Shown here one piece after another: positions 7,086 through 11,958 of a DNA stretch of 64,000 nt. Numbering within the stretch: position 1 is the first letter of the stretch; every line of letters begins with the position of its first letter. Origin of the DNA: an uncultured bacterium (GTDB lineage: Bacteria; Margulisbacteria; WOR-1; CAVSGV01). The DNA lies in the NCBI GenBank assembly GCA_963699255.1, contig OY969425.1, positions 935,112 through 999,111 of the forward strand. Direction: 5' to 3'. Position numbers and translations under genes: made by a program. Below the pieces are notes generated by a model. The model was not told where the DNA came from, did no database searches, and saw only the letters and a program-made list of their open reading frames with translations.

Positions 7086-7127
7086 CTCATAACCCGAAGG
7101 TCGTAGGTTCAAATCCTACCCCCGCTA
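7086..7127 (+). other. tRNA-fMet-derived 3' fragment (anticodon loop CUCAUAA through T-arm and acceptor 3' strand); 5' half absent
   Basis: CTCATAACCCGAAGGTCGTAGGTTCAAATCCTACCCCCGCTA matches the 3' half of initiator tRNA-Met with compensatory T-stem changes, but the upstream sequence cannot form acceptor or D arms. Confidence 0.6.
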
Positions 7128-7237
7128 CTTCTTCTATGCTTCAGTTACGTAGTAGCCAAGGTTCTCCCGCTACCATATTATAATAATTATAATGTGTGCG
7201 GGATCCCGCCAAAGGCGGGAAAATCCTACCCCCGCTA
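7111..7237 (+). repeat. Composite att-like repeat copy A: 17-mer AAATCCTACCCCCGCTA, 43-bp block, 35-bp insertion, hairpin, second 17-mer
   Basis: 17-mer at 7111-7127 and 7221-7237; block CTTCAGTTACGTAGTAGCCAAGGTTCTCCCGC at 7139-7170. Relative to copy B it carries a 35-bp insertion flanked by CCCGC. Confidence 0.7.
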
Positions 7238-7348
7238 TTTTAAATATTATCTGCTTTAGCAGTAAAAAAGAAGGCTTTTAAGAGATTAATCTTAAAGTTA
7301 AAGGTCTTTTTTGTTGCCATCTAACAAATATCTAATATATACATACAC

Positions 7349-7376
7349 TTGACAAAAATCTCAATTGTTGTATTAT
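7349..7376 (+). promoter_or_regulatory. Sigma-70-like promoter (TTGACA-N16-TATTAT) upstream of the DUF134 operon
   Basis: -35 TTGACA at 7349-7354 and -10 TATTAT at 7371-7376; ATG at 7408. Confidence 0.4.
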
Positions 7377-7407
7377 TAGCATATGCCAATAACTAATTGG
7401 AATATAT

Positions 7408-7914
7408 ATGCCAAGACCCTGTAAATGTAGATGGGTTAGAGGAAGACCTAATTCCAGGTACTTTAAGCCGCAAGGAATCCCGCTGTCATCACTTGAAGAA
7501 GTTGTTTTGACTGTTGATGAATATGAAGCTGTCCGACTTGCGGACCTTGACGGTATGTACCAGGAAGATGCTGCAAAGAAAATGAATATTTCAAGGCAGA
7601 CCTTTGGAAATATCATTGAGGCAGCGCGCAAGAAGATCGCGGATGCGATAGTGAACGGAAAAGCATTAAAGATAGAAGGAGGTGTTATTAAAATGATGGA
7701 AAAACAATTTATTTGTAATGATTGCAAAAATGAATGGACCATGCCCTATGAAACAGGAAGGCCCATGGAATGTCCAAAATGCAAGAGCAAGAACATCCAC
7801 CGTGCTCCTCAGGATAGAGGTTGTAACCTTTCTGGCGGCAGGCAGGGAAGAGGGATGAGAGGCAATGGCAGGGGATGCGGCAGAGGATCTGGAATGGCTC
7901 AGACTGCAAAATAA
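7408..7914 (+). CDS. DUF134-family DNA-binding protein with C-terminal zinc ribbon
   Basis: MPRPCKCRWVRGRPNSRYFKPQGIPLSSLEEVVLTVDEYEAVRLADLDGMYQEDAAKKMNISRQTFGNIIEAARKKIADAIVNGKAL is the conserved DUF134 core; CNDC...CPKC ribbon follows. Confidence 0.75.
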   Translation: MPRPCKCRWVRGRPNSRYFKPQGIPLSSLEEVVLTVDEYEAVRLADLDGMYQEDAAKKMNISRQTFGNIIEAARKKIADAIVNGKALKIEGGVIKMMEKQFICNDCKNEWTMPYETGRPMECPKCKSKNIHRAPQDRGCNLSGGRQGRGMRGNGRGCGRGSGMAQTAK

Positions 7915-7935
7915 TAAAAGGAAGGTGAGCAAGTT

Positions 7936-8301
7936 TTGAAAATATGTATACCAACAACAACTAAAGATGGCATGTCCGCAAAAGTATATGAACACTTTGG
8001 AAGCGCGCCATATTTCACGATCGTTGATATTGAAAATGCTGCTATCGAAATATTAGATAACACTAATTCGCATCATATGCATGGCATGTGCCAGCCGATG
8101 GATGCTTTAAACGGCAAAAAGATCGATGCCGTGATAAGCGGGGGAATGGGGGCAAGAGCTGTTAATAAATTGAACCAAGGCGGGATAAAAGTATTGCGCT
8201 CAAATGGCCTTACGGTAGAAGATACAGTCAAGAACTATAAAAGCGACAAGCTAAAACCTATAACCATAGAAAGCGCATGCATGGACCATTCTTGTCATTA
8301 G
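7936..8301 (+). CDS. NifX/NifB-like (dinitrogenase FeMo-cofactor-binding domain) protein
   Basis: 121 aa; MKICIPTTTKDGMSAKVYEHFGSAPYFTIVDIEN...AVISGGMGARAVNKLNQGGIKV matches the Nitro_FeMo-Co fold family. Confidence 0.7.
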   Translation: MKICIPTTTKDGMSAKVYEHFGSAPYFTIVDIENAAIEILDNTNSHHMHGMCQPMDALNGKKIDAVISGGMGARAVNKLNQGGIKVLRSNGLTVEDTVKNYKSDKLKPITIESACMDHSCH

Positions 8302-8313
8302 GAATAGGGCTTT

Positions 8314-9318
8314 ATGAAAAAACCCTTTGCCAGTCCAGATAAACATGTATTGAGGTATTTTCCCTCATTTATTACCGTTTCTGCCGGCAGGGTTGTAAAC
8401 ATAACGGAGCCTTCTCTTACTTCATGTCCTCTAGCCTGCCATTTCTTCAAAGACTTTAAGAACAGCGGGAAACCGCACAGTAAACCAATAAAACAGATCA
8501 TTAAAAAAGCTATAGAGTCACAAATAAAGGAATATGGATTCTATACAAGTAAAAGACTGTTGCTTATTAGAGATATTACAACACCTTATGGCGCATCTGA
8601 AATATTAATGTGCACCCTGAAAAAGAAAGAGATCGATGCGGCTGTTATTGTCTGTGATGGAGCAGGGACGGTTATCACGGATAACGGAGACCTTGTACAG
8701 GGGATAGGGGCAAAGATGAACAGTTTATTCTTAACCTCACCCATAAAAAAAACTATATCCCGAATAAATAAGCTTGGCGGTCACGTAGTATCAGAAAGTG
8801 CCGCTATCGATCAGATAAAAGGAGTAGAGAGAGCTATACAAATGGGATATAAAAATATAGCTGTAACTGTAAATGGTTATAGTTCTTCAGACAGCTTAAT
8901 AAAGATACGGAAACTCGAGAAAAAACATAAGGTAAGAACAACTATTCTCGTCGTCTGCACAACTGGGGTTAATAATAGAATTGTGGCGAAAATAAAGAAA
9001 TATGCGGACATTGTCTGGAGCTGTGCTTCTCAGGAAATAAGAAAGGATATCGGAGCTGTTGCGTTGCTGCAGATATCAAAACCGATACCAGTATTTGTAT
9101 TGACCGAGAAAGGTTTGGGATTGGCCGCTGCATATGAGCATGGAGGATCTATCCTTAGGTCATTGGACATTAAAAAACAATATTTGATCTCAAATGAGAC
9201 TGGTGGGCGGCCAATAAAACTCGGGTTCCTTAATGCATTCTTATGTGAGAAGAAGCTGCCGGTGTTATCAAACACACGAACAATGCATTGTTATAAGAAC
9301 AATAGGATGGGCAATTAA
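8314..9318 (+). CDS. Conserved hypothetical protein
   Basis: 334-aa ORF tightly packed between the NifX-like and MBL genes; no family recognised with confidence. Confidence 0.5.
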   Translation: MKKPFASPDKHVLRYFPSFITVSAGRVVNITEPSLTSCPLACHFFKDFKNSGKPHSKPIKQIIKKAIESQIKEYGFYTSKRLLLIRDITTPYGASEILMCTLKKKEIDAAVIVCDGAGTVITDNGDLVQGIGAKMNSLFLTSPIKKTISRINKLGGHVVSESAAIDQIKGVERAIQMGYKNIAVTVNGYSSSDSLIKIRKLEKKHKVRTTILVVCTTGVNNRIVAKIKKYADIVWSCASQEIRKDIGAVALLQISKPIPVFVLTEKGLGLAAAYEHGGSILRSLDIKKQYLISNETGGRPIKLGFLNAFLCEKKLPVLSNTRTMHCYKNNRMGN

Positions 9319-9321
9319 ACA

Positions 9322-10694: not shown

Positions 10695-10703
10695 GATCTA
10701 ATT

Positions 10704-10883
10704 ATGCCAAAAGTAGTTAACTATCTTTGTCCCCAGAATCATCCATGTCCATGCGTGCCTGTATGCCCAGTAAAGGCTATAACCCAGAAGGGCTATGATG
10801 CTCCTGTCATAGATATGTCCATATGCACAAAATGCGAGAAATGCGTAAAAGTATGCCCTATGGGAGCGGTCCAAAAGGACTGA
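10704..10883 (+). CDS. Small ferredoxin-like Cys-rich protein (59 aa)
   Basis: Not in the ORF track; translation MPKVVNYLCPQNHPCPCVPVCPVKAITQKGYDAPVIDMSICTKCEKCVKVCPMGAVQKD contains CxxCxxCxxxCP. Confidence 0.45.
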   Translation: MPKVVNYLCPQNHPCPCVPVCPVKAITQKGYDAPVIDMSICTKCEKCVKVCPMGAVQKD

Positions 10884-10891
10884 TATAAACC

Positions 10892-11458
10892 ATGCATTTA
10901 TTTGATACAAAAAGGCTGGAGCATCTGGACGATCCGCAAAGAACAGCGCAGATCCCCGTGAAAAAGATCGCCCTGGAACTGGGACTGAAAGACGGAATGT
11001 CGGTGGCAGATATTGGGTGCGGCTCCGGTCTTTTCAGCTATGCTTTTGCTGAATATGTTAATCCTCACGGCAAACTGGTCGGTTTTGATATTCAGCAGGC
11101 GTGCATCGACCATTGTGAGAAGAAAAAAACCCCAGCGCATAAGCATGTTTCATTTGTTTTGAATGGATCGGACAGGATAGGAGCAAAGGATGGCAGTTTT
11201 GACGCGGCTGTAATGATAGTGGTGGCGCATGAACTGCCCGAGCCTCAAAAATTCTTTCATGAAGTAGCGAGGATATTAAAGCCGGGAGGCAGGCTGGCGC
11301 TTATAGAATGGCAGATGGCGCAGACAAAGAACGGCCCCGACCTGAGCGAGCGGATAGCTCCTGATACACTTGAGAAGCTTCTCAATGAAGCCGAGTTCAG
11401 TATTGTTAAAAATGAAGTTCCCAGTGAAAACCATTATATGATCATTGCTCAAAAATAG
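10892..11458 (+). CDS. Class I SAM-dependent methyltransferase
   Basis: VADIGCGSGLFS motif I; 188 aa. Confidence 0.75.
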   Translation: MHLFDTKRLEHLDDPQRTAQIPVKKIALELGLKDGMSVADIGCGSGLFSYAFAEYVNPHGKLVGFDIQQACIDHCEKKKTPAHKHVSFVLNGSDRIGAKDGSFDAAVMIVVAHELPEPQKFFHEVARILKPGGRLALIEWQMAQTKNGPDLSERIAPDTLEKLLNEAEFSIVKNEVPSENHYMIIAQK

Positions 11459-11479
11459 AATATTCAAGGGAGGTGACAT

Positions 11480-11680
11480 ATGGTAAATAATATGGGTTTA
11501 ATGGACAGGGTAATCAGGGTCATACTGGCTTTAGTCGTTATAGCACTATATTGTCTGAAGATGATATCCGGACTAGCTGCCATTATACTTGGGGTGATTG
11601 CCGCAATTTTTATTGTCACAGGTTGTATAGGTTATTGTCCGCTATATCAGTTAATCGGGATCTCCTCAAAGGGAAAGTAA
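11480..11680 (+). CDS. DUF2892-family small membrane protein
   Basis: 66 aa; RVIRVILALVVIAL...GCIGYCPLYQLIGIS matches the YgaP-like DUF2892 pattern. Confidence 0.65.
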   Translation: MVNNMGLMDRVIRVILALVVIALYCLKMISGLAAIILGVIAAIFIVTGCIGYCPLYQLIGISSKGK

Positions 11681-11686
11681 TAATAA

Positions 11687-11736
11687 GGGCTATGTTTTGG
11701 AAATGATCTCATCACATAGCCCTTTCGTTTGTTTTT
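11687..11736 (+). terminator. Putative intrinsic terminator after the DUF2892 gene
   Basis: Stem GGGCTATG...CATAGCCC with a 20-nt loop followed by TTTCGTTTGTTTTT. Confidence 0.35.
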
Positions 11737-11870
11737 CCCAATCTAACATTCACCTGCTGTATCTGACGTTTCTGAGGTTATAATCGCCCGTCTTGTAGCT
11801 GGTTTATAAGGAATTTGGCTTATTTTCAGGGAAATAGTGATAGTAGGGCGGGTAAGTTCCAACCAAGACA

Positions 11871-11958
11871 AAATCCCTCCCCCGCTACCTCTTTTATGCT
11901 TCAGTTACGTAGTAGCCAAGGTTCTCCCGCCAAAGGCGGGAAAATCCTACCCCCGCTA
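11871..11958 (+). repeat. Composite att-like repeat copy B: variant 17-mer, 43-bp block, hairpin, 17-mer
   Basis: AAATCCCTCCCCCGCTA at 11871-11887, shared block at 11888-11930 (one or two mismatches to copy A), AAATCCTACCCCCGCTA at 11942-11958. Confidence 0.7.

Follow-up and report, generated by a model that had tools for sequence, protein, structure and literature searches.

Cis-mobilisable elements (CIMEs) are decayed elements that lack the integrase and transfer genes and keep attL and attR, and their stacking with other elements is described as accretion (PMC5704250). Tandem islands at the ssrA gene of Dehalococcoides are bounded by direct repeats of ~20 nt that extend from the T loop to the 3' end (PMC3146451), and partial tRNA genes are known as a widespread by-product of integration (PMC9897764). 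Here we describe a related locus in a 64-kb stretch of the genome of an uncultivated bacterium (contig OY969425.1, referred to as the window; all coordinates are those of this stretch), in which pieces of the 3' end of an initiator tRNA gene (tRNA-fMet) recur on both sides of a 4.6-kb island. Everything from before position 1 to ~21305 probably consists of elements that entered an initiator tRNA-Met site in successive integrations, the tRNA pieces being the attachment (att) cores left by tyrosine-integrase recombination. The evidence supports a stack of mobile DNA layers that together span at least 21 kb: a plasmid-like element (E1), a scar, the integrase-less island, a second scar and a decayed remnant of 9 kb (E3), with host DNA from ~21309 (Table 1). 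The phenomenon as such is known and the locus is a further example of it from a poorly known uncultivated lineage; its junctions are unusually layered, and it brings no new mechanism to light.

The island compares with the described systems as follows. Like the CIMEs that occur in tandem with ICESt1 and ICESt3 in Streptococcus thermophilus (PMC5704250), it adjoins a further mobile element in a tandem array at a single att site. It resembles a CIME in gene content, as its nine genes are all cargo or regulators and include no recombinase, and it appears to have retained attL and attR, to judge from the cores at 7221, 11871 and 11942 within repeats of 88 and 127 bp and from the arm (P') that follows the first of these cores. 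However, the S. thermophilus CIMEs target the 3' end of fda and have a single core at the junction, whereas the array in the window targets tRNA-fMet and has composite junctions (core-spacer-hairpins-core). The Dehalococcoides islands (PMC3146451) are likewise stacked in some number downstream of one small-RNA gene, and some of them, like the island in the window, have no integration module and were discussed as cis-mobilisable or fixed; they differ in their recombinase and target (serine recombinase DsiB and the tmRNA gene, against tyrosine integrases and tRNA-fMet in the relatives of the window elements), and only in the window do cores of 42 nt and of 17 nt occur together. As in the partial-tRNA scars (PMC9897764), a 3' tRNA fragment whose 5' half is missing marks the distal end of an integrated element, and the crossover falls in the anticodon loop or T loop; nothing essential differs.

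The longest of the tRNA pieces (core X) is identical over all of its 42 nt to genuine bacterial initiator tRNA-fMet genes: among the matches listed, more than 80 tRNA-Met(CAT) genes are 100% identical in their 3' part to window 7086-7128, and a 25-mer from X matches at least 120 GTDB genomes as the 3' end of tRNA-Met(CAT) genes. The matched genes are of the initiator type, as seen from their GGG/CCC anticodon stem and from a U72 mismatched with C1 or U1. X starts with the C of CTCATAA, where the anticodon loop begins, and orphan 3' fragments with the same start and without a 5' half were recovered from L046, L081, L098, L099, L106, L123 and the attR of L129. The anticodon loop is reportedly a classical sublocation for integrase crossover. 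The three other copies (cores Y) are 17 nt long and begin at AAATCC in the T loop. On the + strand the 17-mer AAATCCTACCCCCGCTA is found exactly at 7111 (within X), 7221 and 11942 and with 2 mismatches at 11871 (Y*), which makes four matches where 0.21 are expected by chance; none of 100 shuffled sequences contained four or more. These cores are embedded in longer direct repeats (7111-7170 and 11871-11930, 93% identity; 7204-7251 and 11925-11972, 92% identity), and the two resulting units, 7111-7240 (copy A) and 11871-11961 (copy B), flank the operon that runs from the DUF134 to the YgaP-like (DUF2892) gene. No further copies were found anywhere in the window.

The tRNA pieces are scars and not tRNA genes. 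ARAGORN detected only a tRNA-Leu in the window (46245-46329), and Rfam at the gathering threshold returned that same tRNA-Leu and nothing more. With a permissive threshold the Rfam tRNA model gave 17.9 bits on 7076-7127 (cut-off 29), the D and anticodon arms being missing. There is no intact tRNA at 7060-7137, and thus not the complete cloverleaf of a functional initiator, nor is there a complete tRNA-fMet elsewhere in the window or in the leftward extension of 2.2 kb that is covered by contig L001 of the Logan assembly of read set ERR10755942, which is 100% identical to E1. A sequence-only reading of this stretch had claimed the 42-nt fragment without a 5' half, the recurring 17-mer with its variant at 11871, the bracketing of the island by two repeat units and the lack of both an intact tRNA gene and an integrase, all of which was borne out; the repeats, which it had named as a ground for refutation if common genome-wide and unrelated to the island borders, occur within the 64-kb window only at these two places. 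Four nucleotides upstream of X lies a heptamer, TAGCGGG, that is complementary to CCCGCTA at 7121-7127, and the 53 nt of 7075-7127 can be folded as an acceptor stem plus T arm (dG -16.1 kcal/mol, z -2.2, equalled by 7 of 200 shuffles). The heptamer was not found beside the X fragments of other genomes and may be a chance occurrence or a relic of a tRNA-derived attP. An archaeal-type initiator (A1:U72, from TAGCGGG...CCCGCTA) was dismissed since the host is bacterial, with markers such as sigma-54, NtrC-type regulators, a resistance-nodulation-division (RND) pump, enolase and the type IV pilus proteins PilB and PilM; it is countered as well by the many bacterial tRNA-fMet genes that end in CCCCGCTA and have U72 opposite C1 or U1.

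The DNA that follows the left Y core has relatives in integrative elements at tRNA-fMet. Window 7221-7338 matched locus L035 with 79% identity over 118 nt (E 8e-22), and a search with the junction pattern retrieved two more loci with this arm block, L123 and L124. In L035 and L124 the block comes directly after tRNA-fMet (intact in L124, cut by the locus end in L035); an HTH_17 (excisionase-like) gene and then a tyrosine integrase come next. In L123 the block is preceded by an orphan X fragment. The end of the block is formed by a tandem repeat of 10-11 nt that varies between loci. A complete element, L129 (GCA_964397255.1, CAYNHQ010000009.1), was located through its integrase P0244, which is 42% identical to that of L124. 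It is a 3.9-kb integrative element with an intact tRNA-fMet at one end, a 47-nt attL/attR repeat starting with CTCATAA at the other, and xis (HTH_17) and a 353-aa tyrosine integrase in between. The tandem motif ATCTAACAAATATCTAAC (ATCTAAC-N4-ATCTAAY) occurs exactly twice in L129, once per arm, and exactly twice in the window, at 7319-7336 and 21226-21243, where 0.02 would be expected; from its placement we regard it as a putative arm-type integrase-binding repeat. Because this motif, present in both arms of the complete element, is found here as well, 7238-7338 is regarded as DNA of an integrated element, a P' arm. The possibility that 7238-7318 is native host DNA downstream of the tRNA was dismissed, as the integrase arm motif lies past the block and, in L129, inside the element.

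The second occurrence of the motif falls within 21205-21305, a stretch homologous to the P arm of L129 (local score 44, shuffle mean 18, none of 500 shuffles as good) that breaks off ~70 nt short of the expected core position. The window has in common with L129 the target tRNA-fMet, the start of the core in the anticodon loop, the tandem motif and a P arm. L129 differs in having xis, an integrase, an intact tRNA and a clean attL/attR pair of 47 nt. These genes are all lacking in the window, where the cores are shortened to 17 nt and the attR core expected after 21305 is missing. In L123, CBASS-type defence genes (HNH-SAVED effector and SMODS cyclase) are carried by the element on the left side of the orphan X (2179-4240).

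The two units were compared segment by segment. The 25 nt to the left of the 17-mer agree at 3/25 positions; then follow the 17-mer (Y against Y*, 15/17), the first 7 nt of the spacer s1 (5/7; CTTCTTC in copy A and CCTCTTT in copy B), the remainder of the spacer (36/36), and the short hairpin h with Y and TTT (37/37); beyond TTT the identity falls to 7/11 over the next 11 nt and 12/40 over the next 40 nt. The borders of the repeat are thus sharp and fall on features of the tRNA, the left border on the T loop and the right border on the tRNA 3' end +3, and the mismatches are limited to the left 24 nt. The units further differ by an indel, which the sequence-only reading had taken for a 35-bp insertion in copy A flanked by a duplicated CCCGC. 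The segment is in fact 39 bp long, 33 nt plus the 6-nt direct repeat TCCCGC, and present in copy A only. Window 7162-7220, which covers this segment (hp) and the short hairpin, matches 1942-1998 of L124, in the intergenic region between rpoN and tRNA-fMet (87% identity, E 5e-12). Because the segment is conserved to this degree in L124, copy A represents the older state and copy B has lost 39 bp between the two TCCCGC repeats, so that the direction of the event is the reverse of that first proposed. Contig L002 of the Logan assembly, which covers the island, ends inside the repeats, as expected.

Folded as DNA, hp and h form two adjoining hairpins that share the stem TCCCGC...GCGGGA, with z scores of -6.9 (window) and -5.3 (L124). 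A role of hp as tRNA promoter (TATAAT at 7189) was rejected, as the promoter scan does not list this TATAAT, and a role of h and hp as terminators likewise, as a T run follows them on neither strand. This double hairpin, [TCCCGC..GCGGGA][TCCCGC..GCGGGA] with the palindrome GCGGGATCCCGC, is seen in window 7165-7220 and L124 1942-1998, and the stem pair was also observed in intergenic regions of two IMG/VR phage contigs (L132 5716-5770 and L133 10540-10575). The rpoN-tRNA-fMet intergenic region of L124 (1840-2130) moreover contains three REP-like hairpin copies, GCCCGCC-NNN-GGCGGGCAGGCAG, and several GGATTTG T-loop-like motifs in inverse orientation, which may be older scars. Small core-spacer-core scars that resemble those in the window were noted in two GTDB metagenome-assembled genomes (MAGs; L036 4575-4760 and L092 4942-5142), where an intact tRNA-fMet is followed at 111-136 nt by a 33-34-nt copy of its own 3' end, in L036 together with the same downstream sequence.

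From left to right the order is: E1, X, s1-hp-h, Y, the P' arm with the island (7238-11870), Y*-s1*-h-Y, E3, the truncated P arm and host DNA. X abuts E1, the ParB/SSB/PriCT element, of which we infer it to be the attR; the direct repeats of 88 and 127 bp would be hybrid att regions; and the DUF134-to-YgaP operon lies in an element that opens with a recognisable integrase-family P' arm and encodes no recombinase. After plain tandem accretion, neighbours should be separated by a single core, as is seen in L123, whereas here a core-spacer-core arrangement is found, with the same spacer at both junctions. We propose that in an array with at least three cores two non-adjacent cores recombined, which would release the island as a circle with the composite attP P-Y*-s1*-h-Y-P'. 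This circle would then have recombined with a composite already in place, X-s1-hp-h-Y, within the h-Y segment that the two have in common (37 identical nt), either by an integrase acting in trans or by RecA, alternatives that the sequence cannot distinguish. A single event of this kind would give copy A a left part of the resident type (hp, Y, CTTCTTC) and copy B one of the incoming type (no hp, Y*, CCTCTTT), would make the right parts of both copies identical, and would leave unrelated DNA past the tRNA 3' end, as observed. The restriction of the mismatches to the left 24 nt is explained in the same way, because a single crossover to their right would give that pattern. This history is the simplest one that reproduces every detail. 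The island cannot move by itself, and it is therefore predicted to be excised only by the integrase of a neighbour, or to be carried along with that neighbour, in a CIME-like manner. Serial integration at a tRNA gene, as the sequence-only reading had it, is supported by the core starts, the arms and the motif, with the corrections that its 'insertion' is ancestral and that the island is one layer of a larger stack.

No recombinase was recovered by any of the searches: i) a hidden Markov model (HMM) trained on 89 integrases related to that of L124 gave nothing at E<=10 in the six-frame translated window and L001; ii) tblastn with the two L035 integrases gave nothing in the window or the 2.2 kb further left; and iii) Pfam detected no serine recombinase, transposase or other recombinase domain among the open reading frames of 1-21.3 kb. 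The locus shows what is expected of tyrosine-integrase att sites in its repeats, which correspond to the 3' part of a tRNA from the anticodon or T loop, and in the putative arm-type repeats of P' and P arms (7319 and 21226; for the island's own P arm a single ATCTAAC is a possible, weak counterpart), but not in an integrase encoded inside the element (1-21.3 kb and L001).

Several observations weigh against serial integration as we describe it. An intact tRNA-fMet and an integrase are both absent from the window and would have to lie outside it, and no integrase with a crossover in the T loop was identified. No excision product or island-free allele was found for this DNA, which is present in one read set only (ERR10755942); an island-free allele was sought through the tautomerase gene at the host border, which is carried by the same sample only. 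Between L035 and L124 the arm block 7238-7318 shows 88% identity, against only 44% for their integrases, which suggests module exchange or constraint and not simple co-evolution of arm and integrase. The hp-h segment of L124 lies upstream of the intact tRNA-fMet, which our model does not predict. Finally, the arms in the middle of the stack are poorly defined: 11700-11870 has no significant similarity to the P arm of L129 (145 of 500 shuffles as good) and a marginal one to window 21200-21320 (22 of 500), with TTCC-ATCTAACATT as the only shared stretch, and the DNA from 11959 onwards is not significantly similar to the arm at 7238 (68 of 500). A P arm at 11700-11870 and a degenerate second arm block after 11959 were thus not supported by the shuffle tests, and the island's own right arm is only weakly recognisable.

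This last point bears directly on whether the island is a discrete element. Alternatively, 7238-21305 could be one decayed element of the L129 type, 14 kb from P' arm to P arm, in which 11871-11961 is an internal secondary duplication or an att-scar insertion. We consider this unlikely, yet it stands because the right arm of the island and an arm after 11959 are both not significant, while only two tandem motifs and only two supported arms exist, at 7319 and 21226, as a single element would have them. However, the composite at 11871 contains two cores and is sharply delimited at positions defined by the tRNA, so that even a unit inside such an element still requires recombination at these cores; 11959-21204 is a mosaic in composition (G+C fraction 0.41, 0.50 and 0.38); and by the family HMM the integrase is absent from these 14 kb as well. 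The repeats might also stem from ordinary homologous recombination or segmental duplication of an older scar, with no integrase acting on the island and the tRNA-like ends being incidental. With 36 and 37 nt, the identical stretches have a length at which RecA can act on rare occasions, and the deletion of 39 bp between 6-nt repeats indicates that slippage-type events did happen here. Both unit borders nevertheless coincide with att-core landmarks and an integrase-family arm comes directly after the left unit, which makes an incidental origin highly unlikely; a Campbell-type insertion by RecA of a composite-bearing circle would lead to the same product and differs from the history proposed above in the enzyme only.

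It is even less probable, to the point that we give it hardly any credence, that the units belong to a dispersed tRNA-derived repeat family, like repetitive extragenic palindromes (REPs) or miniature inverted-repeat transposable elements (MITEs), or represent a tRNA-like small RNA, unrelated to the island borders. The recurrence of the double hairpin in L124 and the two phage contigs and the foldability of 7075-7127 could be taken in this sense, but a dispersed repeat should occur in many copies, whereas the window has two, and an exact 22-mer of the s1 spacer matched nothing in the GTDB genomes (596 Gb), the JGI metagenomes or IMG/VR. A small RNA is countered by the ARAGORN and Rfam results and by the weak z score of the mini-tRNA fold. 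Separate from these explanations of the locus as a whole is the thought that s1-hp-h (54-93 nt), situated between two att cores, is itself a miniature integrase-less integrative element that was copied within the array, which we regard as a long shot. If true, it would be a MITE-like counterpart for tyrosine-integrase elements, and the double hairpin, seen also beside the tRNA-fMet of L124 and in phage contigs, would be a functional recombination or regulatory site and not an inert scar.

Serial integration at the initiator tRNA site, which we favour, marks at least 21 kb of the genome of this uncultivated bacterium as stacked mobile DNA at one tRNA-fMet hotspot, and it explains how a metal/redox operon comes to lie in low-GC DNA without a recombinase. 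Relatives can be sought with three markers, a core that starts at the anticodon loop, the arm block and the tandem ATCTAAC motif, and the 42-nt and 17-nt pieces are a warning for annotation, where they should not be called as tRNA genes.

Table 1. Features of the tRNA-fMet array and its surroundings, in window coordinates
Feature	Position	Strand	Basis or remark
E1, right part, plasmid- or ICE-like (integrative and conjugative element) mobile element	1-7085	-	Pfam, GC 0.41
E1: HTH_3 regulator	1214-1465	+	Pfam
E1: DUF2958	1477-1800	-	Pfam
E1: SSB	1784-2149	-	Pfam
E1: PriCT_1	3727-4584	-	Pfam
E1: ParB_N + HTH_ParB, 435 aa	5415-6722	-	Pfam
TAGCGGG heptamer	7075-7081	+	4 nt upstream of X
X, 42-nt att core, tRNA-fMet anticodon loop to discriminator base	7086-7127	+	sequence identity
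s1, unique spacer	7128-7164	+	repeated at 11888-11924
hp, 39-nt hairpin TCCCGC...GCGGGA, copy A only	7165-7203	+	begins with tRNA-3'-end-like TCCCGCTACCA
h, short hairpin TCCCGCC-AAA-GGCGGGA	7204-7220	+	repeated at 11925-11941
Y, 17-nt att core, T loop to discriminator base, left junction of island	7221-7237	+	
P' arm of island	7238-7338	+	homology to L035, L123, L124
Small hairpin within P' arm	7252-7261	+	fold
Terminator-like hairpin and T run within P' arm	7268-7313	+	fold
Tandem arm-type motif ATCTAACAAATATCTAAT within P' arm	7319-7336	+	
Sigma-70-like promoter TTGACA-16-TATTAT for cargo operon	7349-7376	+	11/12 consensus positions
Cargo operon, in order: DUF134, NifX-like, DUF2099, MBL-fold, ArsR, thioredoxin, 4Fe-4S ferredoxin, SAM methyltransferase, YgaP-like transmembrane (DUF2892)	7408-11680	+	Pfam; gene calls on L002; GC 0.415
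Single ATCTAAC, possible degenerate P-arm site of island (weak)	11741-11747	+	124 nt before Y*
Y*, variant 17-nt core AAATCCCTCCCCCGCTA	11871-11887	+	
s1* + h, hp deleted	11888-11941	+	
Y, exact 17-nt core, right junction of island	11942-11958	+	
E3, decayed mosaic remnant, ~9 kb, no recombinase	11959-21204	.	Pfam, GC
E3: CBM96 gene	12026-12700	-	Pfam
E3: genes of 50% GC	12912-16856		
E3: ORF6N (anti-repressor-like)	17006-17530		Pfam
E3: BglII-like restriction endonuclease	17867-18412		Pfam
E3: N6/N4 DNA methylase	18409-19344		Pfam
P arm homologous to attR-side arm of L129	21205-21305	+	alignment; ATCTAACATTTATCTAAC at 21226-21243
Tautomerase gene; host-type DNA (GC ~0.50) restarts	21309-21503	-	Pfam, GC

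The layers of the stack were inspected for their gene content and relatives. In a comparison with PHROGs only the ParB of E1 was recognised and no phage structural genes were found, and E1 is therefore not regarded as a prophage. Its SSB protein is 90% identical to that of the tRNA-fMet element in L124. A search by blastn against plasmids gave no match for E1 and matched the island region at tRNA-fMet only, and a search for relatives of E1 through ParB was of no use (nearest non-self homologue 39% identical over 46% of the query). Contig L001 ends at window 6809, a position at which no repeat is seen in the window. Between the promoter region of the ParB gene and X, at 7004-7045, lies a terminator-like hairpin that has T runs on both strands. 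Within the island, the DUF2099 protein has homologues of 58-61% identity, mostly in Omnitrophota MAGs, where the genes are located in chromosomal metal and Fe-S clusters; no att context was found in these neighbourhoods. Because its homologues sit in such clusters, the operon is regarded as cargo and not as mobility machinery. The G+C fraction changes along the stack, from 0.41 (1-7085) and 0.415 (island) to 0.41 (11959-12900), 0.50 (12901-17000) and 0.38 (17001-21400), and is 0.50 in the rest of the window; the low value of 0.41 in E1, the island and 11959-12900, compared with 0.50 in the host, counts in favour of serial integration.

In the host DNA, rpoN and the NtrC-type regulator next to it (40869-43721) encode proteins that are 67-70% identical to those of L124 (1-2410). 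The tRNA-fMet of L124 lies intact and divergent ~550 nt upstream of rpoN, and a corresponding synteny was considered for the window and rejected, as it is not kept there: no tRNA is found upstream of rpoN in the window, and the two hosts differ in where their tRNA-fMet locus lies.

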